This document shows, piece by piece, positions 13,279 to 25,788 of a DNA stretch of 64,000 nucleotides (position 1 is its first letter; every line of letters begins with the position of its first letter). The DNA comes from an uncultured Bacillota bacterium (lineage in GTDB: Bacteria > Sysuimicrobiota > Sysuimicrobiia > Sysuimicrobiales > Segetimicrobiaceae): assembly GCA_963804645.1 (NCBI GenBank), contig CAWDRG010000005.1, forward strand, positions 288,001 through 352,000, read 5' to 3'. A program made the position numbers and the translations under genes. The notes under the pieces were generated by a model. It did no database searches, was not told where the DNA came from, and saw only the letters and a program-made list of their open reading frames with translations.

Positions 13279-13441
13279 TCGCCTCCGGATCGCAACGCCC
13301 TGCCGGCGCGCCGCGCGCCCCCTAGTACTACAAAGTCACGATTCTGGCAGGATTTTGCCCGCATGTGCCGAACAGCGGTAGTCGCGTACGCATACATCGC
13401 ACCTCTTGTCGCAGCAGACGTCGTCGTAGCAGGTGTCGCCG

Positions 13442-14652
13442 ATGGCCAATGCGCCGCCTTTTGCCGATCCCGATCTGCGTCAGCGGTTGATCGAGTACCT
13501 CACGGCCGTCCTGCCGGAGTTGGGCCGCAAAGATCGCCGACCGTGGGCGCAAGCGTATGTGCGCGGCTTGCTGCTGGAAGGCGAGCGGAAATCGATCGAA
13601 CCCATGGCCAAGCGCTTGCCGGACGGCAATGTGCAAGCCATGCAGCATTTCATTGGAAAGAGCCCGTGGCCGTATGAGCCGGTCCGCCGGCGGTTGGCTG
13701 GTGTGTTGTGCGCGGAAATGGGCTCCGGGCTGTGGATCGTCGATGACACCGGGTTTCCCAAGCAGGGCAAGCATTCCGTCGGGGTGGCGCGGCAGTACTC
13801 GGGCACGTTGGGCAAGGTGGCCAACTGCCAAATCGCGGTCAGCCTGCACCATGCCACGACGCTGGCGAGTCTGCCCATCGACTGGGCGTTGTACCTGCCG
13901 GAAGCCTGGGCCGCGGATCGCGCGCGCTGCGCCCGCGCGGGCGTGCGGCGGCGTCCGTGGACTACCGCCCCAAATGGCGGTTGGCGCTCGAGATGATCGA
14001 TCACGCTCGACAGTGGGGCCTGGGGGACCAACGCGTCGTCGCCGATGCTGGCTATGGCACCATCGCCGATTTCCGTGCGGGCTTGCGGGAGCGGCAGTTG
14101 CCCTATGCCGTGGGCGTCGAATCCGGCACGGGCGTGTGGATGCGGTATCCGCGACGTCGGCGGCACCCACCCACCGTGCGCGGCCGGCCGCGTACGCGCT
14201 GGGACTACGGGGGCCAGCGGCCGCCCAGCGTCCTCGAGGTGGCGCGCGCGTTGCCAAAAGCCGCTTTTCATACTGTGACGTGGCGCGAAGGGAGCCAGGG
14301 CCAGCTCCGGTCGCGCTTCGCGCACGTCCGCGTCTGACCGTCCCACGGCTTTCATGAGGGCAAGCCGCCGGAGGCCGAACAATGGCTGCTCATCGAGTGG
14401 CCGGCCGACGCCGCCGAGCCGACCAAATACTGGTTCGTCACCGGCCCGCGGCGGCTGTCGCTGTTGCCACTGGTGCGCTGGGCGAAGGCGCGCTGGCGAA
14501 TCGAGCAAGATTATGAACAGTTGAAGGGCGAACTGGGCCTCGACCACTTCGAAGGACGCCGCTGGCTGGGCTGGCATCATCACGTGACGATGACCACAAT
14601 GGCGTACGGGTTTCTCGTGCGCGAACGGCTTCGTCCCCTCGGGAGTAAAAAA
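13442..14652 (+). pseudogene. IS701-family DDE transposase, main part (frameshift near 13950, in-frame TGA at 14335, interrupted at 14652)
   Basis: IVDDTGFPKQGKHSVGVARQYSGTLGKVANCQ, VADAGYG and RWRIEQDYEQLKGELGLDHFEGRRWLGWHHH motifs. Confidence 0.92.
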
Positions 14653-14655
14653 GGT

Positions 14656-14762
14656 TCATCCGGCATTTTCGGGAATTCCAGGAAACGCGGCCATGATCTT
14701 CAGGAAGAAGTAGCCATCGTCTCGGTAGCCGTACCCCATGCGCTTGAGGACCTTGATCTTGT
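14656..14762 (-). CDS. ISL3 transposase 3' exon
   Basis: (N)KIKVLKRMGYGYRDDGYFFLKIMAAFPG, the canonical ISL3 C-terminus; joins the 5' exon in frame. Confidence 0.9.
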
Positions 14763-16677
14763 GGTGGGTAGAGGACGGCCTCGGATCGACCCTTGCGCCG
14801 TCCTCCCCCCGCAGAACCCGGCGTGCAGGTTTCCCGCACCGGGCTCCCCAGAGCGACATTCACGCCTCGGCCTCGTCAGACCGTCGGATGTAGAGTCTTC
14901 GGGCGTGGCAGTTCAAACCACGAGCGGCTCCTGAGGTAGCTCCAGAACAACCGGTGCCATTGGCCGCGCCGACGCAACGTTCTTAGCCACTGGAGCTGGA
15001 CCTCATGACAGACCCAGTCCAACTTCCGCTCGCAGTGGTGTAGGGCGAAGTACTGGTAAAATCCCCGCAGCATCGTCGTAAGGTGAGCCTGTTGCGCCCG
15101 GCGATTCCAGTGCATATGGCTCCTGAGCCATTCATGGGTGCGATCCAGAAACGTCCTGCAGCTGTCGTGTGCCGGAATGCGCACCACGGCGAACTTGCCC
15201 CGCCGGTCCCTACCGCACACGTGCTTGAAGCCCAGAAATACGAACGTGCCTGGCTTCTCTCCATGTGCGGCGGCCCGCTTTCGGGCCTCTCGCCCAAACA
15301 GCAGTAGGCGCGTCTTCTCTGGTTTTAACTCCAGGCCGAACTTCTGCATCCGCTCCGCCAGTTCGCGGCCGAAGGCGTTCGCTTCCGCCTGATGCTCGAA
15401 ACATACCACGAAGTCGTCCACAAACCGAATCAGGTGAGCGGCCCCTTGACAGCTCCGCTTGAACCGTCGCTCGAACCAGAGGTCGAGGACGTGGTGCAAG
15501 TAGAGATTGGCGAGCACGGGGCTGATCGGATTGCCTTGCGACACGCCCTCCCTGTTTCGGACGACAACTCCGTCGTGCATCACCCCGGCCCTGAGCCACT
15601 TGCCAATGAGCCTCAGGATTACGGGATCGGCGATGCGATGGGCCACCATCTTCCGTAACCAGTCGTGATTGATGCGTGTGAAGTACCCGCAAATATCCGT
15701 CTCGAAGACGTACTGTGCTTTCCCCGCAATCAGATGGCCGCGAAGATCTCGCAATGCCTGGTGCGGGTTACGCCCGGGCCGGTATCCGTATGAGCACTCC
15801 ACGAAGTCCTGCTCGTAGATGGCGCTGAGAATCCGCGCCACTGCGCGCTGCAGTAACCGGTCTTCCACCGTGGGAATGCCGATCGGGCGCATAGCCGACG
15901 TGTCCCCAGGTTTGGGGATGTCTACCCGTCGCACCGGTGGAGCCTGATACCGCCCTGCTTTCAGTCGTTCCCAGAGATCGACGACCCGTATCTCCAGATC
16001 GCGCTCGAACTGCGCGCATGTCTCTCCATCCACTCCGCTGGCACCCCGCCGGTTCATCTGCTGCCAAGTTTCTTTCAGAAACTCTGGCGTCAGAATGTGC
16101 GCCAGCGACGTGAAGCGGCACTTCGGGTCTGCCTTGGCTTTGATCGCTATCCCGGCCAGTCCGGTGGTCACCCTGATCCTCCCTCTGAAGGTGGAGGGGA
16201 TGTTTCCCCGACCAAGGTCGTACGCTCTGCCCCGCCGCTTCCCCATGTACGCGGCTCTCCCGCGCTCCGAGTACTACCAGCGGGTCCGACTTCCACCGCG
16301 GCGTTTGCCTCTCTTCGGTCGAACCATCTCGATCGGCATACTCGATCCACTCGATCAAGACCGCGGTGGATCTCCCAGGTCCCTCGACGCGTCCGTCTCC
16401 GTCCGTGCCGTGCTCTCAGACCCCGCCGGGGTCTCCGGCATCCTCGCCCTAACGGATGCGTACTGTTGCCTTCCACGATAACAACCGTGTCGGCCCCCGG
16501 ATTAGGAAGTCACGAGGCTCAATCGCTTCCTTTGCAGTACGGCCCGGACGTCGCCCTGTCTACGCTTAGCCCATGTCGTTACCTCCATGAGCCCAAGACT
16601 CGGTTCCCGGTGGGTGGCTGGCCCTTGCCGGGGCGGGAATTGCACCCGCTGGACGCGCCAGATTTGTCCTGGCGCGC
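14763..16677 (-). mobile_element. Group II intron 1 (1915 nt) in the ISL3 transposase
   Basis: 5' end GCGCGCCAGG. Domain V GAGCCCGGTGCGGGAAACCTGCACGCCGGGTTC at 14846-14814. Domain VI hairpin with bulged A at -7 (14769). Removal restores EGIN-NKIK. Confidence 0.92.
14876..16171 (-). CDS. ltrA: Group II intron reverse transcriptase/maturase, no endonuclease domain
   Basis: GASGVDG, RPIGIPTVEDR, SYGYRPGR, VSQGNPISPVLANLYLH and RFVDDF motifs. GTG start chosen for the GGAGG RBS (open frame extends to 16246). Confidence 0.92.
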   Translation of the reverse strand: MTTGLAGIAIKAKADPKCRFTSLAHILTPEFLKETWQQMNRRGASGVDGETCAQFERDLEIRVVDLWERLKAGRYQAPPVRRVDIPKPGDTSAMRPIGIPTVEDRLLQRAVARILSAIYEQDFVECSYGYRPGRNPHQALRDLRGHLIAGKAQYVFETDICGYFTRINHDWLRKMVAHRIADPVILRLIGKWLRAGVMHDGVVVRNREGVSQGNPISPVLANLYLHHVLDLWFERRFKRSCQGAAHLIRFVDDFVVCFEHQAEANAFGRELAERMQKFGLELKPEKTRLLLFGREARKRAAAHGEKPGTFVFLGFKHVCGRDRRGKFAVVRIPAHDSCRTFLDRTHEWLRSHMHWNRRAQQAHLTTMLRGFYQYFALHHCERKLDWVCHEVQLQWLRTLRRRGQWHRLFWSYLRSRSWFELPRPKTLHPTV

Positions 16678-17809
16678 TGTTGATGCCCTCGAGGAGGCTG
16701 GTGTGTAACGGATAGCGACAGTGCGCGATGATCCCGGGGAGCCGCATCTTGAGATGGCGGGCAAACGTCTTGAGGGGTTCAATGCGACTGCGGATGGCAC
16801 GGTGGTACCAGTCGGTGAAGAAGCGGGTGGCGGCGCCAGGATAGGTATAGTCCCACATCTGCTTGAGATCATCCTTCAGCACGTAGACGGCCGCAAGCCG
16901 CCGGTTGGCTGCCAAGAGGTCCTGGAGTCGTACGCGATCCTCCGGTTTGACGTTCTCACGATTGCGCAAGAGGAGCCACCGCGCGCCTTTGATCACCTTG
17001 CGGGCTTCTTTGTCGCGCCGCACGCGATTGGCTTCGTCCACGCGCACCCGGTCAATGACTTCGCGCCCGTACTTGGCGACCACGTGGAAGAGGTCATAGA
17101 CAAGGACCGCGTGCGGACAATGGGCGCGCACTTCTTCTTCGTAGGCCGTGTTCATATCCATCACCACCGCCTGCAGACGCTTGCAGCCCTCGCCACCTAA
17201 CAGCGCGAAGAAAGGACGGACGTCGTCGCGACTCCGGCCTTCGCCGACCCAGAGCACGCGTTTGCGCCGGGGTTCGACCACCACCGTGGCGTAGCGGTGG
17301 CCCTTTCGCAGGGCGAATTCATCCATCGCAATCGTTGTCACGTTGGACAGGTCCACCGGGAGCAACTGCTCTGCCAACGCGGCCACGTCCAGGTTTTTCA
17401 CGGTGTCCCAGTCGAGGCCGTAGAACTCTGCCACGTGCTTCACCGGCAGGATGCGGCAGAGCCGGACCACGCTCTCCGCCAGGCGCTTGGTCACCCGGTC
17501 CCAGGCCGACAGCCAGGACAGGGCCTCGATTTTGGGGCCGCACGTGGGACAGGCAACGCGGTAGCGCGGCACCCATACGTGAGTCTCGGCGTCGAGCAGC
17601 GGCAGATCCCGGATGCAGCGGACCACCATCTCATGCGCCTTCGCCGTCTCTTGGCCGCACCCGGAGCACCGGAAGGTCCGCTTCTCGCGGGCCAGCGTGA
17701 TCTCCACCCGCGGTTTGCCGGCTCCCGTCGTTGGTTCGATGCGCTCCACCAGCTTCACCCGATAGCATTCCCACCCGACCAGCACATTGGTAGACTGATC
17801 ATGAGGCAA
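16678..17809 (-). CDS. ISL3 transposase 5' exon
   Basis: CSGC...CPTC zinc finger, IAMDEFALRKGHRYATVV, VVMDM, YDLFHVV and LLEGIN motifs. Confidence 0.93.
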
Positions 17810-18105
17810 GGTGCTCCCCCTTCCCTGAAGCGCCGTGTTCGCAGCACGTGCTCAAGGATAGGGGTGTGGTACCTTGCCTTCAACCTATACGGCTATCCCG
17901 GTTTTGCCTGAAGAACCGTAAAAAAACCATAATGGCAAAAGTAGCATCGGCGGCATGTGCGACCACTGATGTCGAGGATTCATCCTTAGGCATTCTGAAG
18001 ATCAACGACGGCGAAGTGACGCGTCAGGCACTCGAGCACAGCAGTGATCATTGTACGCAAATCAGTTCGAGTCGTGAACGCGATAGAGAGACGCGTCGTG
18101 GAAGA

Positions 18106-18334
18106 CTATAGGGGCTTGCTCGGGGCGGAGGTTTGCCAGAGCTGTTCCAGTCGGGTGAGGAATGCCTCAGGCGCTCTTCGGTATCGCGCTCTCTGACGTC
18201 GAGGTTCCTGACTCGCGGCCCAACGTTGCATCTCCGTCCGGTATTGGTCGGTGGGAACGTGAGCAAACCATTCGATCAGGACGTCTGGAGGCAGATCGAC
18301 TGCATATACCGCCAATGCTCCGTACCGCATAATG
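18106..18334 (-). pseudogene. C-terminal part of the unclassified IS transposase
   Basis: (Y)IMRYGALAVY...RARYRRAPEAFLTRLEQLW. Joins GRKSWDG in frame once 18335-20879 is removed. Confidence 0.8.
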
Positions 18335-18342
18335 TAGCCCTC

Positions 18343-18375
18343 GGTAATGGTAGCGTATGAAACGCTACCACTACC
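18343..18375. repeat. 33-bp hairpin, left cassette end
   Basis: GGTAATGGTAGCGT-ATGAA-ACGCTACCACTACC (14-bp arms, one mismatch). Confidence 0.9.
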
Positions 18376-19146
18376 GAGGTCTGGGTGGTGGGAGCGGCAG
18401 CGGTGGTGGCACCACGCCCGGCGGAGGCAGTCCCGGGGGTGGGAGTCCCACTCCGGGTGCGAACTCCGGTCCTGGAAGCAGCGGTGGGAACGGGGGAAAC
18501 GAGCTCCGTGGCCCCCACTTCTCCGGCCAACACTGTCATTACTATATGGCCCGTAACTCCGGCGCCCGCGCCGACGACGCCGGCGGTCCCGGCAGTGCCT
18601 GCTGCACCGACACCGGTTGCGGCGACACCGGCAGTGGGCCGACACCCGCGAGGCCTCCAGTGGCGCCGGCGGCCGCTCCTGCGCCAGCGGCTCCGCAGCG
18701 TGCTGGGTTCGGCCCCCCCGTGCTCGGAGGTAGCGGGCCGACTGTGGTACTCGGCGCCCCGCGTCAGCACGGCGCCGGAACATGCCGCTCTCAGGGCGGT
18801 TCAAGGACAGCCGACCAAGTTACCATTTGGGGGCATGTCGGAAACAAAGCGCTCCCTAAATCACGCTCGGACGCTGGATTGGAACGCTCATGGCTTCAAT
18901 GGGGGCGATTTTGTTCGGGTGGAAGGTCGAGTAGTTGGAGAGCGCCTGGCACTTTCAGTTCGCGGTGCGGCCGGAGAATCGGGATACCGCTGCTCATCTG
19001 GGGCGCCGGTACGGGTGGTGCGCCTGTCTTGCAAAAAGCGGATTCCAGCGTCGATTCTGAGGTTACGAGCCGAACGACGGCACGGTGCCGGACATCCCGG
19101 CAGCGAGACGTGCGTCACGCGGTGGGACGGCCCGCTGAGCCCGTGA
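18376..19146 (+). pseudogene. Probable 3' fragment of a Gly/Pro/Ala/Thr-rich exported protein gene, captured without its start
   Basis: Low-complexity GGGSGSGGGTTPGGG and PAPAPTTPAVPAVP linkers start right at the hairpin and switch frames. No clear RBS/start; followed by a terminator-like hairpin. Confidence 0.4.
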
Positions 19147-19154
19147 CAACGCAT

Positions 19155-19184
19155 CGGGGAGCGAGTGCGAACCCTCGCTCCCCG
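19155..19184. terminator. Hairpin between convergent ORFs (probable terminator)
   Basis: CGGGGAGCGAG...CTCGCTCCCCG, 11-bp stem. Confidence 0.6.
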
Positions 19185-19234
19185 TCAATTTGAAGAGACT
19201 TGGTCGCGTTCCTTAACGCTTTACCGGTCTCCGA

Positions 19235-19879
19235 TTAGCGCCTCACCTTGCGGCGAAGCAGACCGGCGGCGCCGACCAGTCCGAAGGCGAACATCGAGAG
19301 CGAACTCGGTTCCGGTACGGGATTAGGGGCGATCTGGCCGGCTGAGATCTGTCCCTCCAGATCAAACCATGCGGTGCCAGTGTTCGCCAAACCGCTGCTG
19401 CCTCCCACGAGAACGGTGCCGCTGTCCAGGCTCGGGCTGATGTTAGCAAAAGTGGCGCTCGCGCTCTCGTAGTCATTTGGGTCGGTAGATGTGAAGGAGC
19501 CGCCGCACTGAGCGGCCGTTGGGCTGGGAGAATAAGTGCCGATGCATGCACCGTCGCCGTCAAAGCCAAATACTCCGCTACCCACGCCGCCGGTGATCGC
19601 AACGCTCTTCAGTGTGCCACCCGACGAATTCAGAACGCCGATCAAGGTGTCTTCGATGCCGTCGAAGGGCCCCTGATCAGGCGATGCCGTGGTGACATTA
19701 AACCCCGTGGCTACGTCTGAACTGTTGACCGATGTAACCGTAAGCAGCAGTTCGCATCCATTAGTGTCATTACCGACAGGCGGGCACTCGGTAAAGGAGG
19801 CGGCATACACTGCGGGGGTGACTGCCCAGAGAAGCACCGCTACCGCAGTCAGCGCAATACCCCATCTTATCGTCCTCAT
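19235..19879 (-). CDS. PEP-CTERM sorting-domain protein
   Basis: Signal peptide, Ser/Thr/Gly-rich body with four Cys, C-terminal PVPEPSSLSMFAFGLVGAAGLLRRKVRR, AAGGAGGT RBS. Confidence 0.9.
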   Translation of the reverse strand: MRTIRWGIALTAVAVLLWAVTPAVYAASFTECPPVGNDTNGCELLLTVTSVNSSDVATGFNVTTASPDQGPFDGIEDTLIGVLNSSGGTLKSVAITGGVGSGVFGFDGDGACIGTYSPSPTAAQCGGSFTSTDPNDYESASATFANISPSLDSGTVLVGGSSGLANTGTAWFDLEGQISAGQIAPNPVPEPSSLSMFAFGLVGAAGLLRRKVRR

Positions 19880-20335
19880 GCACTTACCTCCTTGATCGCT
19901 GTGGTCGCTGTGGCATTGCTGGGTGGGCTACGGCATCCCCCCTCTCGTTCCGGGGCGACGAGGATCGCGTCTGCGGAGCGCTGACGCCCTCGGCGCGGAG
20001 TCTGACCTCGGAATGGGGCTCGCTGTCCGAACCCATCCTCCATCGAACTCGAATGTGCTTTCCCGTCCCACGGGGGAAATCTTTGTATCACTTGAATGAA
20101 ACAGGCCACAAAAACGAACGACCGCTGGTCGGTGCGGGTTACGAACGTGGCTGCCGAGGCGATTCTGATTACTTCCTTTGAAGGAGGCTTTGGAAGGAGG
20201 CTTTCTGGACCGGGGCGGCAGCAGTCCGGCGCGCACGTCATCCCGCGAGATGCACAGCTTCGCCCCGCGGCGTCGGTTCACTCGATTCGGTCCGCGCGGA
20301 TGGCCGAGCCCAGCGCCGGGCCTGGTCGAGGCTCT

Positions 20336-20844
20336 CTAAACGGGCGGTCCGAAGCGGGTGCGCGAGCGTCGCAGCGCGGCACGCAGCCCCGGGCGGGCCA
20401 ACTGAAGCGGCGCGCGACCCACCGCGTATCGTACCGTGAGCGGCGGCCGGCGGTGTTTGGTTGCGATCAGGCTTGCCACCTCGGCCCAGATCGCGCTCAG
20501 CAATCCGTTCACGGCGTGTCGGCGGGGCGCCGTGCGCCGATGCGCCAACGCGTGACGGAGCGCGCCGCGGAGCGCTTCGGTGCTCGTGGTGGGAGCGTCG
20601 GACGCGACCGCCACTCGGCGCGCCGCCCAGGCCAAGGCATCTCGCACCGTGTCCTGCCGCACGATGTGCGGGCATCGGGCGGCCGCGCCGATCATCTGGT
20701 CGGGAGCGAAAGCCTCGTCGGAGGCGTGCGCGAGCTGCGTGACGGTGAGCGCCTCGACGAGGGCACGAGCGTCCTCTCTCAGCGGACCGGTGGCAGCGGT
20801 CTGGGGGAGCTGCGTCAGGGCCTTGTCAATGATTAGCCGAACGG
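20336..20844 (-). pseudogene. Possible 3' fragment of a helical protein gene truncated by the cassette end
   Basis: Open frame with plausible helical composition begins at the right hairpin with no independent start. Confidence 0.35.
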
Positions 20845-20879
20845 GGTAGTGGTAGCGTTCCCCAAACGCTACCACTACC
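20845..20879. repeat. 35-bp perfect hairpin, right cassette end
   Basis: GGTAGTGGTAGCGTT-CCCCA-AACGCTACCACTACC (15-bp perfect arms). Confidence 0.92.
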
Positions 20880-21848
20880 TAGCCATCCCATGACTTGCGC
20901 CCCGTGGTTCGGCGGTGTGCGCTCTTGGCGTGGCGCAAGAACCGCTCCAGATCGTTGTTCGTCCGCGGGATCTCGGGGTGCAGAAAACAGGTGAACAGCG
21001 TGTCGCCGAATCCCTGGGTGTACTTTTGGAAGGATTCCGCGAACAGTTCGTGCGCTGGCTGAGTCACCGCGGCCTGTGCGACCGCGGCCATGAGCGTGCG
21101 CACTCCCATCTTCGCCTGCGCCGCAGCATCATGGGGAAGCACGCCAGGGTATTTCTCTGGATCGATGACCCGAGCGAGACCCAGTAACCACGTGTGTTGC
21201 TGCTTGAGCGTGGCGTAGTCAGCGCCGTAGATCTGGTGGCGAGTTGCGATGTGGGTCAGGGTCCGCATCATGGGTACGGGCCGGACCGCAAAGCACCGCT
21301 GCAGGGAGGCGTAGATACGCTCCAGATTCTCATAGGCGCGGATGCCCCCGGGTGCAAGTGGCGGCAGTCCGTTGGATCCCGTCGAGGGAGAGCACCAGCC
21401 CGCCGTTCTGCTCGATTTGGCGGCGCACCGCCTCGACTTGCTGGCCGGCCGTGCACCCGAGAAGTGCGAAGTACGCTTCGTAGAGGCCCTGGACGTGGCG
21501 CGCACTGATGATGACCCCGCGCTGGCCGAGCTCGGCATGGATCTCAGCCCGCGTGCAGTGGTCCACCGTCCGGAGGCGCCCCACCGTGACCAGCACGTCC
21601 ATGCCGTACGTCGAGCCCTTGAGGCTCAAGCCTTCGGCGACGGCGGAGCGGTACACGCGGCGGTCGCAAGCGGCAGTCCAGCATCGATACCCGAGGCTCC
21701 CGGCCCAGAGCACTTCGGACAGGCCGATGATATGTTTGCGCCAGACGGGGTGACTGTACACCAGAGGCGCCCCGCACACCAGACAGGTCCGGCATTCGGG
21801 GCGGAAGTAGACGCGCCGGGGAGCCGCAAACACACGCGCGCACCTCAC
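20880..21848 (-). pseudogene. Unclassified IS transposase, N-terminal and central parts, with frame break/internal deletion near 21373
   Basis: CLVC..C zinc-finger start, YGMDVLVTVGRLR..HTH, GGLVLSLDGIQ, then in another frame IPRTNNDLERFLR...RRTTGRK. GTG overlaps the upstream stop. Confidence 0.75.
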
Positions 21849-22234
21849 GGGCGCTTGCGGATCACCTCCGCAGGATCGAGTTGGGCGGCTTGCCGAAGGC
21901 GCTCCAAGAGACCTTGGAGCTCGACGTCGAGCGCGCGCAGGTGTCGAGCATGCGCCCGCCATCGCCGATACGCGCGGGCCGCTGTGCTGGCCGGACCCGC
22001 CTTGGTCGGCGCCACGGGGAACACGTGCGGCGTGCCCGCACGAAACACTGAGAGGCACCAATAGGGGCCGTGTTTCTTCCCCCGCATGCAGCGGCACCCC
22101 GGCTTCCCGCACACCCGGTAGCGCTTGAACAAAGAGCCGGTCAGAGTCGGCCCGATCGCTAACGCCTCCTCCAAGACAGCGGTTCTCAGGCGGTTCACCG
22201 CTTGCACCTTGGTGCGCAGGGCCTTGGGACCCAT
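21845..22234 (-). CDS. DUF6788-like small IS-associated protein
   Basis: GSL...YRVCGKPGCRC...HGPYW motif, GGAGG RBS, translationally coupled to the transposase. Confidence 0.8.
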   Translation of the reverse strand: MGPKALRTKVQAVNRLRTAVLEEALAIGPTLTGSLFKRYRVCGKPGCRCMRGKKHGPYWCLSVFRAGTPHVFPVAPTKAGPASTAARAYRRWRAHARHLRALDVELQGLLERLRQAAQLDPAEVIRKRP

Positions 22235-22393
22235 CCGCCACCTCCGTCTTCTCTATCTGCCACTAGTATTCCTTTTCATAATGCCAGATCTCAAACCAAA
22301 AAGAAAGGAGCATGCGAAGGAGCGCCGCCGAGCACTCCAGTCACCTGCTCCAGTGCCTGTCTATGGCCGTGATGCTACTTTTGCCATTATGGA

Positions 22394-22525
22394 AAAAAAA
22401 CGGCGCGCGTCCCCACCGTGCCGCAGGTGCGGGCCCAGCTCCAGTACGTCCTGAAAACCTGGACCGGTCGCTGCAGCGTCTGCGGTCACCTCGTGCGCCG
22501 TCCGACCAAGAATGACCCATCTTAG
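22394..22525 (+). pseudogene. IS701 transposase C-terminal tail
   Basis: KKTARVPTVPQVRAQLQYVLKTWTGRCSVCGH...stop continues LRPLGS from the 14652 junction. Confidence 0.8.
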
Positions 22526-22536
22526 ATGTGACTTTG

Positions 22537-24394
22537 GTCGAGTAGGACCAGCGATCGCTCGCTGGGACCCCTCTGCCGAACGGCTCGTACGGATCTCCCG
22601 TAAGCCGCTCTACCCCATGCCGACTCGTGAGTCATCAGGAATATATCCGAAGAGAGTGGAGCCCCAGACGGCGGTAGAAGAATGTTTCAGAGTATCGCCG
22701 CCAGTTCGCCGTGCGCCAGCGTTTGGCCATGAAGGCCCGCAGCCTCCGAAGGATCCAGCGGTCCAGCGGCCTCCCGATCCGTCGCAAGTCGCCAATCCGG
22801 AAGAATCGTCCCCAACCGCGGAGCACTGGATTTAGCAGCGCCACGATCTCGTCCGCCCGACGCGGTTGGTTACGCCGCGTAAGATGACGGACCTTGTCCC
22901 GGAGCCGCTGTATTGCTCGCGCCCGTGGCTGTAGGTGCAGTCCCTCCTCATCGCGCCAGAAGCGGAATCCAAGGAACTCAAATCCTTCCGTAATGTGAAC
23001 GACCCGCGTCTTCGCAGGATGCAGTCGCAGTCCCAACTGCCCCTCCAGAATCTGGTGGACCTGCTCCAAGGCCGCCTCGGCGTCCTCGCGCGTTCGGCAC
23101 ACGATGACACTGTCATCAGCATACCGGACCGCGCGATGTCCTGCCGCGAGCATCTGATGATCGAAGGTGTTCAGAAACGCATTACTGAGCAGCGGCGAAA
23201 CTACACCCCCTTGCGGGGTGCCCGCTACCAGGGTACGCTTCTTGCCCTCCTCCATCACCCCGGCCTGGAGAAACGCCTGCACGAGCCGGAGAATCCGCCC
23301 ATCCGCCACCACCTCGGCGACTGCGGCCAGCAGCCGCGCATGGGACGCGGTGTCGAAAAACTGTTCAATATCGATTTCGACAATCCACTCGCCCCCGTGA
23401 TGCAGGCTCGCCATCACATCGCCAATGGCCTGATGCGCTGACCGTCCTGGACGAAACCCGTAACTGGTCTCCGCAAACCGCGGCTCAAAGTGCGGTTCCA
23501 GCCGCAGACGCATCGCCTGCGCCACGACGCGATCTCGTACAGCAGGGATCGCGAGGCCGCGACGACGTCCATCGGGTTTGGGAATGTAGACGCGACGCCC
23601 GGGCTGGGGCACATAGGCATCGTCCTTGAGGGCCGCCTGGAGTCCTTGCAACTCCTCATCCAAGTGTGCCTCAAATGCCTCAAGGCTCTGACCATCCACG
23701 CCCCACGTCCCGTGGTTCGCCTTGACCAGCGTCCAGGCCCGCCGCAGATTCGGCAGGTACCAGACCTTGTCGATGAGCGAGCCGACCTTGATCGGATGCA
23801 CGTCCTCCGCCACTCCTCCTCCTTCCTGACCAGAGTCCTGTTGGTCGGGGTCTGCACCGGTCGCGGCTCGGGAGCTGCTCATGACAGAGATCCCTTACCC
23901 CGCGCTCGTCAAGCCGATCCCGCCTTCAGGCCACCAAGCATGGAGCGGGTCCCTTCGCTCTGCCAGGTTTCCCTGACCTCATCGCTACGTCTGGACCCGT
24001 CCGACTCCTGAACGTGCATCGGGTTGGCTTTTCCCCTTCCGGGTTATACCGTCCCTACCTGTCCGCGCAGGACCGAACCCTACTCGCGACAGGACACGCT
24101 CAGGCCTCCCCGGGTCATGCTGCTCTCTGTCCCACCATGCTGCCCGCACCCACGACTGATCCCCCCTGGTCTTCTCTGGATGCCCCTTCCTCCAGTACTA
24201 GCAGAGTCGGGCCTCCAGGGGTTCGCGCCGACCGGTTCGCCTGGCTTCGACAGCCTCGGCTGCGGCCTGGTGGTTTGCCTCAGGTCCTTCAGATTCCGCC
24301 TCGCGACGGACACCCTACCCTTTTCGGCTACGGTCCGCATCCAGCTGGACCGGCAGGTCTTTCACCTGCGAGAGAACAGCACTGCCGGGCACAC
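22537..24394 (-). mobile_element. Group II intron 2 (1858 nt) inserted in the IS701 right TIR
   Basis: 5' GTGTGCCCGG and 3' CCTACTCGAC. Domain V GAGCGGCTTACGGGAGATCCGTACGAGCCGTTC at 22610-22578. Bulged A at -7. Removal restores the TIR. Confidence 0.93.
22635..23813 (-). CDS. ltrA: Group II intron reverse transcriptase/maturase, no endonuclease domain
   Basis: SLIDKV, GVDG, LAIPAVRDR, SYGFRPGRS, GTPQGGVVSPLLSN, RYADD and LNPVLRGW motifs. GTG start after GGAGGAGG (open frame extends to 23882). Confidence 0.93.
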   Translation of the reverse strand: MAEDVHPIKVGSLIDKVWYLPNLRRAWTLVKANHGTWGVDGQSLEAFEAHLDEELQGLQAALKDDAYVPQPGRRVYIPKPDGRRRGLAIPAVRDRVVAQAMRLRLEPHFEPRFAETSYGFRPGRSAHQAIGDVMASLHHGGEWIVEIDIEQFFDTASHARLLAAVAEVVADGRILRLVQAFLQAGVMEEGKKRTLVAGTPQGGVVSPLLSNAFLNTFDHQMLAAGHRAVRYADDSVIVCRTREDAEAALEQVHQILEGQLGLRLHPAKTRVVHITEGFEFLGFRFWRDEEGLHLQPRARAIQRLRDKVRHLTRRNQPRRADEIVALLNPVLRGWGRFFRIGDLRRIGRPLDRWILRRLRAFMAKRWRTANWRRYSETFFYRRLGLHSLRIYS

Positions 24395-24399
24395 TAGTA

Positions 24400-25788
24400 C
24401 TAGGGTTTGGCGGGCGCGGACGGCGTGACGGTCGACGGCGCGTGGCTCGGCGTGATCGTCGAGCCGGGGCGTGTGGCCGGCGCCGCGCTGCCGGCGGGCG
24501 GCTGCAGGCCGAGAAAATCCTTAATCGGCTGCGGGAAGCTATCCAGCACCCCGGCCGCGAGCGTGTACTGGAGTCCGAGCGCGCGGTTCACCGCGACCCA
24601 CCCGTTGTACTGTTTGTAAAACTGCACCGTGAATCTCGCGTCGGCGCCGCCGTCGGTCTGCACCTCGAACGCCGGGGCGGCCGCGAACGAGGACGTCAGC
24701 GCCTGCACGCGGTCCGCGTCCATCAGGTTCACCGACGAAAACATGTCGGAGACGTTCTGATCGCTCAGGTCGCTCCCGGTAAACCCCGGGCCCTGACGGC
24801 GGACCTCGAGGGTCTTCCCGTTCCGGCGCCACGTGAACACGGTCAAGTCTTGAGGATTGTACGGCAGCACGTGGGTGCTGACGAGCGAGATCGGCGCGGG
24901 GGTCATCCGCCCGTCGAGGTCCGCGTCGAGCTCCATCACCGTGCGGCCGCCGGCGACCATCGCGTACGTCACCTTCGGCCCCTTCGCGAACAGCATCCGC
25001 AGGGGCTCCGGACGCCCCTTCATCGTGAGATCGAGCGTGACGTCCGGATGATCCAGCCCGTAGGGGGCCAGGTCGGTCACGCCGTCATGGAACACCTTGC
25101 CGTCGGAGGTGGTGAGCGGGAAGAACAGATCCGTGACCTTGAAATCGTCGGCCGGCCACGGCCGGCTCCCCTCGATGCGCCAGCGGTCGGGGCCGGTGCG
25201 GTCCACGACCAGCGATTCCGTCGGCGACGTGATGCGCACCTGCTGGACGTCGGCGTTCGCGAAGTCCGCGAGGGTCTTCTGGCGGAGGTCCGCGGCGGTC
25301 TTCGTCAGCCCATCCTTCGCGGTGCTGTCGACGACGTACAGCGAGGTGCCGGGGTCGAGCTTGGCGTAGAGCGCGTTGCCGACCGGCGACGGCTTCCCGA
25401 GCTCCACGGTCACCGATCGCCCGCCGGAAGTGCGCAGCGTCACGCGCACGGTCGGCCGGTCGAGGCCGTACGCCGCGAGATCGGTCGCGCCGCTGAGCGT
25501 CCGCTGGGGCACGATCCCGGTGACCGCGTCGAGGAAGTCCGAGACCGACAAGGAGGCCGCTGGGGTCTGAATCGGACGCGTGATCTGCCAGTGCGTGGGG
25601 TCGGTGCGTGACAGTTCGACCGTCTGGTTTGCGGTCGTGATCGTGATTCCGGTGATGTCGGCCTTCTTGAGCTGCACCAGATGGCTCGCCAGTTCCGCCC
25701 GCTGCGCCTGCGGCCGGTCCACCGCGAAGATGTACGCGGCGATCACCACCACGAGGCCGGCGAGGATGAGCGTCGCGCGGGGGGTCAC
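24400..25788 (-). CDS. DUF4340-type membrane-anchored protein
   Basis: N-terminal TM and repeated LAAYGLDRP/LAPYGLDHP motifs; last gene of a Gld-type operon. Confidence 0.82.
   Translation of the reverse strand: MTPRATLILAGLVVVIAAYIFAVDRPQAQRAELASHLVQLKKADITGITITTANQTVELSRTDPTHWQITRPIQTPAASLSVSDFLDAVTGIVPQRTLSGATDLAAYGLDRPTVRVTLRTSGGRSVTVELGKPSPVGNALYAKLDPGTSLYVVDSTAKDGLTKTAADLRQKTLADFANADVQQVRITSPTESLVVDRTGPDRWRIEGSRPWPADDFKVTDLFFPLTTSDGKVFHDGVTDLAPYGLDHPDVTLDLTMKGRPEPLRMLFAKGPKVTYAMVAGGRTVMELDADLDGRMTPAPISLVSTHVLPYNPQDLTVFTWRRNGKTLEVRRQGPGFTGSDLSDQNVSDMFSSVNLMDADRVQALTSSFAAAPAFEVQTDGGADARFTVQFYKQYNGWVAVNRALGLQYTLAAGVLDSFPQPIKDFLGLQPPAGSAAPATRPGSTITPSHAPSTVTPSAPAKP

Follow-up and report, generated by a model that had tools for sequence, protein, structure and literature searches.

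A group II intron that probably homes into the tips of IS701-family elements and the target duplications beside them

We have analysed a stretch of 64,000 nucleotides (nt) from the genome of an uncultured Bacillota bacterium (GenBank assembly GCA_963804645.1, contig CAWDRG010000005.1, positions 288,001 to 352,000), referred to here as the window, in which a group II intron lies inside the right terminal inverted repeat of an IS701-family insertion sequence (IS). The genome under study is called G000; the window is part of its contig C5, and its other contigs are called C1, C2, C9, C11 and so on. Our comparison of the intron with its relatives has led us to a reading that we hold with considerable confidence: the intron would be a live, or very recently live, element without an endonuclease, whose natural retrohoming site is formed by the tips of IS701-family (and other TAYTAC) elements together with the duplicated YTAG, i.e. 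5'-YTAG TAYTA^C-3'.

The intron, its parts and the two ends of its host are located in the window as follows:

24400 to 24403, minus strand: right CTAG target duplication, positions -9 to -6 of the 5' exon
24395 to 24399, minus strand: outer right inverted repeat, 5 nt (TACTA), with which the 5' exon ends
22537 to 24394, minus strand: the group II intron proper, 1858 nt, with 5' GUGUG at 24394-24390 and 3' ...CGAC ending at 22537
24190 to 24206, minus strand: domain I hairpin CUCU-GCUAGUACU-GGAG, with exon-binding site 1 (EBS1) UAGUACU at 24200-24194
22635 to 23882, minus strand: intron-encoded protein (IEP), 415 amino acids, reverse transcriptase (RT) and maturase, without an endonuclease domain
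22578 to 22610, minus strand: domain V (D5), a 9-bp basal helix with AGC, a 2-nt AC bulge and a 4-bp distal helix
22540 to 22573, minus strand: domain VI (D6), whose bulged A (22543) is 7 nt away from the 3' splice site
22528 to 22536, minus strand: inner right inverted repeat CAAAGTCAC, 9 nt, the start of the 3' exon; its C at +1 is the presumed intron-binding site 3 (IBS3)
22393 to 22536, plus strand: 3' segment of the IS701-family element, with C-terminal transposase codons and the inner right repeat
13322 to 13339, plus strand: left CTAG duplication (13322-13325) and empty left repeat TACTACAAAGTCAC (13326-13339)
13326 to 14652, plus strand: 5' segment of the IS701-family element, with the transposase frameshifted

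Read on the minus strand, the junctions are ...AAACC CTAG TACTA / GTGTGCCCGG ... CTACTCGAC / CAAAGTCAC ATCTAAG, where the slashes mark the splice sites; in the longer context, the 5' exon is ...GCCAAACC CTAG TACTA, and the 1858-nt intron is followed by CAAAGTCAC ATCTAAGATGGGTCA. A preliminary description of this DNA, made from the letters alone, had placed the intron at 22528-24403: the feature itself is confirmed, but that range also takes in the split repeat and the CTAG, the intron being 22537-24394. The IEP, an RT with a maturase (X) domain encoded in domain IV, scores 139.7 bits against RVT_1, 62.6 bits against GIIM and 391.5 bits against TIGR04416 (cut-off 300), and its best plasmid matches are ~44% identical and carry generic names. 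Boundaries of the GUGYG/AY type are likewise present in every intron copy that we have collected and, in the fold of the last 98 nt, the copy of the related genome G011 keeps the D5 and D6 helices, both through compensatory changes. Judged by these elements, 22537-24394 is an intact group II intron of the mobile type, with a ribozyme and an RT/maturase.

The host element can be assigned to the IS701 family by its IS701-type DDE transposase, its 14-bp repeats and the CTAG on both of its sides, the target duplication of this family being 4 or 5 bp (Siguier 2015, as quoted in PMC8024623; this and the other papers cited here by PMC number are represented by excerpts). The IS701 transposase model NF033540 (cut-off 150) scores 206.7 bits at 13433-13996 and 79.4 bits at 14464-14934 in the window, and 276.5 bits when the copy on C2, an element of 1474 bp without its intron, is read through. 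The left end of the window element is uninterrupted, 13320-13339 reading CC CTAG TACTACAAAGTCAC; within the window the 14-mer TACTACAAAGTCAC is unique, where chance would give 0.03 occurrences. When the intron is excised, the right repeat matches the left one at 14/14 positions, at 18/18 with CTAG, and at 20/20 with two further C, so that the earlier claims of a split right repeat, restored by excision, and of an empty site at the left end both hold.

The two repeats of the window are separated by 11,074 bp instead of ~1.5 kb, making the host IS ~11 kb long, because the body of the IS701 element holds two further insertions. That the two repeats nevertheless belong to one insertion follows from its surroundings: the flanking NAGPA and DUF4340 genes are adjacent in 5/5 genomes of the same genus, and in contigs from the sequencing runs X1 and X2 the left flank runs straight into position 24400, with one CTAG at the joint, which also identifies CTAG as a 4-bp target duplication. 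The runs X1, X2, X15 and X16 were seen as contigs, not as reads; X15 and X16 are RNA, and the assignment of X1 as DNA is a guess of the search tool.

In order to collect the relatives of the intron, we have used a 36-nt probe internal to the intron, so that the choice of loci was blind to the exons, which gave two loci in genome contigs and seven in metagenome contigs, and we have searched 61 related genomes at the DNA level. The latter search yielded real matches in genomes G002 and G011, a 151-nt fragment in G006, which is of the same genus, and a short match of 61 nt with 86% identity in G054; class-wide and phylum-wide searches (94 genomes each) added no new junctions, their one further match, in the genome G078 (marked as unpublished), being left out of the comparison, and an IEP-only search of genome contigs returned 113 pattern matches with no relative among them. 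After sequences with identical flanks had been merged, nine distinct 5' junctions were left for comparison.

Eight of these nine junctions read YTAGTAYTA at the 5' splice site, beginning with CTAG in six cases and with TTAG in two; they come from the three copies of G000, G002:C37, G011:C40, G011:C92, and the loci L020 and L025. The variant TATTA occurs at five of the eight. The intron of G011 is 82% identical over the assembled part of its 5' end (~100 nt), and the 3' exon of L020 is 97.8% identical to the C2-type IS over 361 nt, which brings the IS701 right ends verified as intron hosts to four (three in G000, and L020). The preliminary description had proposed that the flanks of homologues be checked for IS701 ends or the AGTACTA/C junction, and had named as homing site the junction at both ends of every inserted copy: the comparison made here supports the IS-end junction as the shared site, in 3/3 copies of G000 and 8/9 junctions overall, while its extension to both ends of every copy goes too far. 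In G002, the intron at C37 (L012, ~1400-1500) ends at nt 351 and is continued by unrelated sequence, and a separate fragment at C56 covers nt 753-1264 with 95% identity; this genome seems to hold only broken copies.

The three copies of G000 are that of the window (C5), C2:214438-216295, and C11:245720-247465 with C22:2552-2662. All three occupy the same position of an IS701 right end, the window site being CTAG TACTA/.../CAAAGTCAC and the C2 and C11 sites CTAG TATTA/.../CTATGTCAT. Pairwise, the introns differ at one or two positions (C2 and C11 at one in 1746 nt), and all three encode the same IEP in an open frame; the host elements are 80.6% identical between the window and C2, and 97.96% identical between C2 and C11 (24 mismatches and 6 gaps in 1471 nt). 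Since the introns are far more alike than the IS copies that carry them, the intron must have entered each end separately and recently: as far as these comparisons can show, the three insertions are independent and recent, and the introns are much younger than their hosts.

Several side observations concern the same copies. The third copy is broken at intron nt 111/112 by an element with an IstB-like ATPase motif (IS21-like by eye); the metagenome contig L026 has the same break, and loose ends at window position 24285 in runs X1, X2 and X15 are consistent with it. The right flank of the C2 element (C2:216300-216330) resembles the left flank of the C11 element (C11:244225-244250), AACTTTCGACTCGGGACA versus AACTTTTGACTCAGGACA, and these two IS copies may sit in another repeat. 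G000 is rich in group II introns, with 17 places above the cut-off of RF02003 (D1D4-4), besides the weak matches of the intron studied here.

The association with IS ends would be uninformative on targeting if a single ancestral insertion of the intron had been followed by the spread of an IS that carried it along. All verified hosts are indeed IS701-family right ends, and the C2 and C11 elements are, as given above, close relatives; we nevertheless consider this course of events very improbable, given that introns differing at 0-2 positions sit in hosts that differ by 2% (C2/C11) to 19% (window/C2), that the intron severs the terminal 5 bp of the repeat, that no host copy has a one-frame transposase, that the same 5' exon stands beside a third, unrelated 3' exon in G011, and that run X1 shows an intron-less form of the window IS end.

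Even less credible to us is the reverse order of events, in which IS701 elements would have inserted beside pre-existing introns, or in which the shared sequence would belong to the flank of the intron. These IS701 copies insert at YTAG, a short target that could adjoin an intron; on the other hand, the 5 nt that precede the intron are identical to the left tip of the IS concerned in each copy of G000 (TACTA in the window; TATTA in C2 and C11), uninterrupted tips occur at four left or solo ends in G000 and, as contiguous CTAGTACTACAAAGTCAC, at 4/4 IS ends examined in G006, and the sequencing runs contain both the IS-less site with a single CTAG and the IS-bearing form without the intron. Separate entry of the intron into IS tips that were already in place thus remains the reading that we prefer.

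The part of the intron that reads the tip can be identified from the exons. The domain I hairpin, in DNA letters CTCT-GCTAGTACT-GGAG, presents UAGUACU in its terminal loop on folding, and this loop pairs with exon positions -7 to -1 of the window at 7/7 positions; for the sites taken together it pairs with AGUAYUA, with a G-U wobble at -3 for the TATTA sites. The IS contributes five of the 7 nt of the complementary intron-binding site 1 (IBS1), and the target duplication the other two. A diverged homologue, the metagenome contig L023 (74.9% identity over 2132 aligned positions, its unrelated flanks included; ~75-80% for the intron), has a 5' exon that ends in ...GCGUUUUUCAUGG (UUCAUGG), and at the aligned loop GCCCAUGAAGG replaces GCUAGUACUGG; its loop CCAUGAA, in place of UAGUACU, is a 7/7 complement of its own exon UUCAUGG. 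This double change of exon and loop identifies the loop as EBS1, as the preliminary description had proposed from its match to the IS end. The 5' exon of L023 encodes the C-terminal 157 residues of an ISNCY-family transposase (2076-2632; NF033593 142.7 bits, a partial match to model positions 294-442 of 444), and the intron lies 83 nt past the stop codon of this transposase, on the same strand. ISNCY is the family of both the L023 host and ISRm17, the host of the intron RmInt2.

Outside the segment that pairs with EBS1, few positions stand out. There is no base preference at positions -10 to -25 across the eight IS-tip sites, and a scan of domain I for an EBS2 pairing to positions -8 to -16 (six of the eight sites used) gave at best 26/36, below all 200 shuffles of the flanks. 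The occupied 3' exons are of three kinds, CAAAGTCAC..., CTATGTCAT... and, at G011:C16, CAACGAGAG..., with only the C at +1 in common; the 3' exon of L023 is CACGGCGCG, and C stands at +1 in all 3' exons seen. Of the 12 occurrences of the 9-mer YTAGTAYTA in G000, three hold the intron, four are intron-free IS tips followed by C at +1, another is a palindromic echo of the window site, and the last four have T at +1 and are empty. In this genome, the 10-mer YTAGTAYTAC is found at IS tips only. From these comparisons, recognition would extend over about 10 nt, made up of the duplicated tetranucleotide, the outermost 5 nt of the IS and the C at +1. The sites with T at +1 (TTAGTACTA followed by T) are C1:170194(+), C13:50967(-), C15:173288(-) and C9:1099036(-); three of the four lie in a repeat, GACTGAAATGCCTTAGTACTAT..., and the C13 site is lagging-oriented by GC skew.

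The tip sequence has a wider distribution than one IS. In G011 and G002, YTAGTAYTAC also heads other repeats, CAGCCGCA... (five sites) and CAACGAGA... (two sites), and by this measure the YTAG-TAYTAC tip is shared beyond a single element; no transposase was found beside the CAACGAGA-type or the CAACGAGAG-type repeat, in the example examined. These seven sites are all empty and lie at contig ends: G011 C6, C85, C119 and C120 (L049, L050, L052-L054), G011 C86 (L051) and G002 C99 (L048).

The lack of an IBS2/EBS2 signal recalls the introns of class C (IIC), and it could be asked whether a DNA hairpin or palindrome at the IS tip is read by the protein or the ribozyme, with the EBS1 match being secondary. 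Among solved structures, the IEP is closest to those of group IIC (7uim_D 259.6 bits, 6ar1_A 233.4 bits, against 159.7 for 6me0_C, 138.6 for LtrA and 178.1 for RmInt2), TAGTACTA is an 8-nt palindrome, and in three of the nine 5' exons a hairpin is 1.4-2.6 standard deviations more stable than in shuffles. The other six, however, fold no better than shuffles, so that no upstream hairpin is consistent; the TATTA variant, at five of the eight sites, is not palindromic; the EBS1 of 7 nt covaries with the exon, whereas IIC introns pair over 3-4 bp; and the D5 triad is AGC, not the CGC of IIC (criteria of PMC1702495). Recognition of this kind therefore has, in our judgement, a small chance of being correct, and pairing of the exon with EBS1 is the reading with which we continue.

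The occupied and the empty ends can also be compared with respect to replication. At the three occupied loci the plus strand is C-rich (negative GC skew), and the intron lies on the minus, G-rich strand. All five empty tips (three left ends, the solo end C5:29849, and the TGCTA variant C17:733869) present the target on the C-rich, plus strand, in contigs of negative skew. The skew is consistent over hundreds of kb, both of its signs occur among the contigs, with a sign change inside C9, and the presence of both signs indicates that it reflects replication; the G-rich strand is the lagging-strand template. Occupation of the G-rich strand only would explain why the left end of the window element is empty. 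The pattern fits fork-primed retrohoming: the same lagging-strand bias has been demonstrated experimentally for the endonuclease-less introns RmInt1 and RmInt2, which are described as using nascent strands at the replication fork as primers (PMC4615759, PMC4424553, PMC8914252).

With regard to activity, one contig of run X1 joins 22536 to 24395 and leaves out exactly the 1858 nt of the intron; it extends 30 nt or more to either side of the joint and has a depth of 4.3, against 16.1 for the contig over the occupied 5' junction. As DNA, X1 would show a site that is polymorphic for the intron; as RNA, it would show a joint of ligated exons; either fits an active element. The mechanism that we propose would start with transcription, in the case of the window by read-through from DUF4340, a gene that ends in a stop codon 6 nt upstream of the intron; the open reading frame (ORF) lists upstream of the C2 and C22 copies gave nothing clear on read-through. 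The spliced lariat, together with the RT, would reverse-splice into the tip site while it is single-stranded on the lagging-strand template, with the C at +1 pairing with a G at EBS3, and the nascent strand at the replication fork would prime the synthesis of cDNA, as for RmInt1 and RmInt2. With 1.86 kb placed between its outermost 5 bp and the remainder of the repeat, the IS end would be disabled at the DNA level. The transposase is frameshifted in all IS701 copies of G000, and none keeps one frame; the copy in the window is dead, and immobilisation of the IS by the intron, which the preliminary description had thought probable, is currently moot.

A number of results weigh against this reading, or narrow it. 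As regards the ribozyme, a search of the window at the Rfam gathering scores left the intron unmatched, though a second intron of the window is reported; a permissive search gave 28.8 bits for D1D4-4 (cut-off 49), in the 5' part of domain I, and RF00029 (D5/D6) gave no match to the intron up to E = 1. The covariation of EBS1 with the exon is seen in one diverged homologue, L023. The 3' exon is unseen at four of the eight junctions (G002:C37, G011:C40, G011:C92 and L025), where the contig or the intron breaks off, and the one complete 3' exon of G011, at C16, is a repeat without a transposase within 1.5 kb; a look-alike of this repeat in G002 likewise had no transposase that we could find alongside. 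With 118 occurrences of AGTAYTAC in G000, EBS1 and the C at +1 cannot be the entire signal: more must be read, and positions -9/-8 and the 3' exon are not separable as contributors. In the strand argument, fork direction is read indirectly, from the GC skew of draft contigs, and the filled sites number three; the two ends of one IS are not independent, so that the paired comparison has a probability of about 1 in 8 by chance, and of the six empty YTAGTAYTAC sites of G011 the 8-kb contig C120 carries two, one on each strand, which means that at least one lagging-oriented site of this genome is empty. Lastly, the contigs of the RNA runs X15 and X16, which are mute on expression, contain only pieces of the intron and no joint of ligated exons.

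The remaining features of the locus are the two insertions in the IS701 body and the gene on the right:

14653 to 17917, minus strand: ISL3-family element with an 8-bp duplication, GTAAAAAA, nested in the IS701 body
17927 to 22392, strand not assigned: nested element of 4.47 kb with perfect 22-bp inverted repeats, CCATAATGGCAAAAGTAGCATC
24400 to 25788, minus strand: DUF4340 gene, with its TAG stop codon at 24402-24400

The ISL3 transposase gene is split, in the sense direction, by the second group II intron of the window (~14763-16642, minus strand), which is unrelated to the first, scores 163 bits for Rfam D1D4-6 and 48.6 bits for RF00029, and has a 456-amino-acid IEP at 14876-16246; the C-terminal ISL3 codons continue beyond it. 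G000 has one copy of this second intron, which is missing from the ISL3 elements on C9 and C15. The element at 17927-22392 is placed in an A-run of the IS701 body and is single-copy in the genome; several ORFs lie on its minus strand, among them one with a PEP-CTERM motif, and no transposase was recognised in it. On the right, the TAG stop codon of the DUF4340 gene was the exact landing point of the IS701 element, and the stop is preserved by the duplicated CTAG; relatives have CTAC or CTAT where the window has CTAG.

Homing into IS tips is not new in kind, the precedent being RmInt2, which homes into the inverted repeats of ISRm17 (PMC4615759), a member of the ISNCY family (PMC10194956). The two introns are alike in being endonuclease-less, in having an IEP of ~415-419 amino acids, in using the terminal inverted repeats of an IS as sites, and in occurring in several copies per genome; likewise, the two ends of the IS offer the target on opposite replication strands in both cases, the lagging bias of RmInt2 being experimental (PMC4615759). 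They differ in the family of the host (ISNCY for RmInt2, IS701 here) and in the position of the site: RmInt2 lies 16 nt inside the tip in the locus that we inspected, so that its minimal target, -16 to +7 (PMC4615759), is wholly IS sequence, whereas the present intron lies 5 nt inside and its IBS1 spans the target duplication. RmInt2 has an EBS2/IBS2 pairing of 5 nt and a U-A EBS3/IBS3 pair (PMC4615759), where the present intron has no IBS2 signal and a C at +1; the two IEPs are 34% identical (178.1 bits), and RmInt2 matches Rfam D1D4-2 (107 bits) and RF00029 (58 bits), neither of which the present intron matches. By these sequence comparisons, the IS family, a site 5 nt from the tip, the missing IBS2 and the lineage set the present case apart.

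Other introns reside in insertion sequences as well: RmInt1 is found in ISRm2011-2, and E.c.I4 of E. coli and others in IS629/IS911 (PMC1802570, PMC3522654, PMC5894124). In these sources, too, specialisation on a multi-copy IS is described as giving a safe and self-renewing supply of sites, and the insertion is thought to curb the IS; their sites, however, are inside the IS (for E.c.I4, in IS3-like transposase genes), not at a junction of tip and flank, and RmInt1 reads a 25-nt target (-20 to +5) with EBS1, EBS2 and EBS3. The likeness to class IIC introns such as B.h.I1 (PMC1702495) consists in the lack of EBS2/IBS2 and the short recognition in the 5' exon, in the top scores of the IEP, and in D1D4-4 being the sole, weak Rfam match; a search with RF02003 in the Rfam control genomes gave no match. 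IIC introns have, according to the same source, a CGC triad and a shorter distal stem in D5, an EBS1 of 3-4 bp, and insertion sites after terminator or attC stem-loops, in contrast to the AGC triad, the 7-nt EBS1 and the inconsistent upstream hairpin of the present intron.

Two classes were considered, and neither agrees in full. Class D (RmInt1/RmInt2-like, IIB3) does not agree with an IEP nearer to IIC proteins than to RmInt2 or with the missing EBS2/IBS2 signal; class C does agree with the latter, but not with the AGC triad, the 7-nt EBS1, or the six of nine exons without a hairpin beyond shuffles. The IEP appears nearest to IIC, and D5 and EBS1 depart from the IIC criteria. We found nothing in the literature, judged partly from titles and the beginnings of abstracts, on a group II intron homing into IS701, and no paper on the target sequence of IS701.

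We also entertain, tentatively and with rather more doubt than belief, a broader view, in which the intron would represent an unclassified, EBS2-less lineage with an IIC-nearest protein and a composite site of ~10 nt that is absent until an IS inserts; it would be a generalist hyperparasite of TAYTAC/YTAG elements, filling every lagging-oriented tip, crippling the ends, and switching IS family through EBS1 alone. The ISNCY-resident sister copy, L023, suggests such jumps between IS families by a change of EBS1 alone.

At the narrower strength of the homing site itself, one mobile element would here be specialised on a site that another creates on inserting; the recognised sequence is unusually short and fully readable, and in this natural set of sites the replication strand sets the filled apart from the empty. 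Homing into the inverted repeats of an IS has been studied by experiment in one case, RmInt2 in ISRm17, to which the present intron would add a second IS family and a lineage that is not of class D. The locus may offer a compact system for the length of target that an EBS2-less intron needs, for the question of whether insertion sequences are naturally held in check by such introns, and for the switching of specificity, as the 7 bases of EBS1 differ between the IS701 and ISNCY sister copies.

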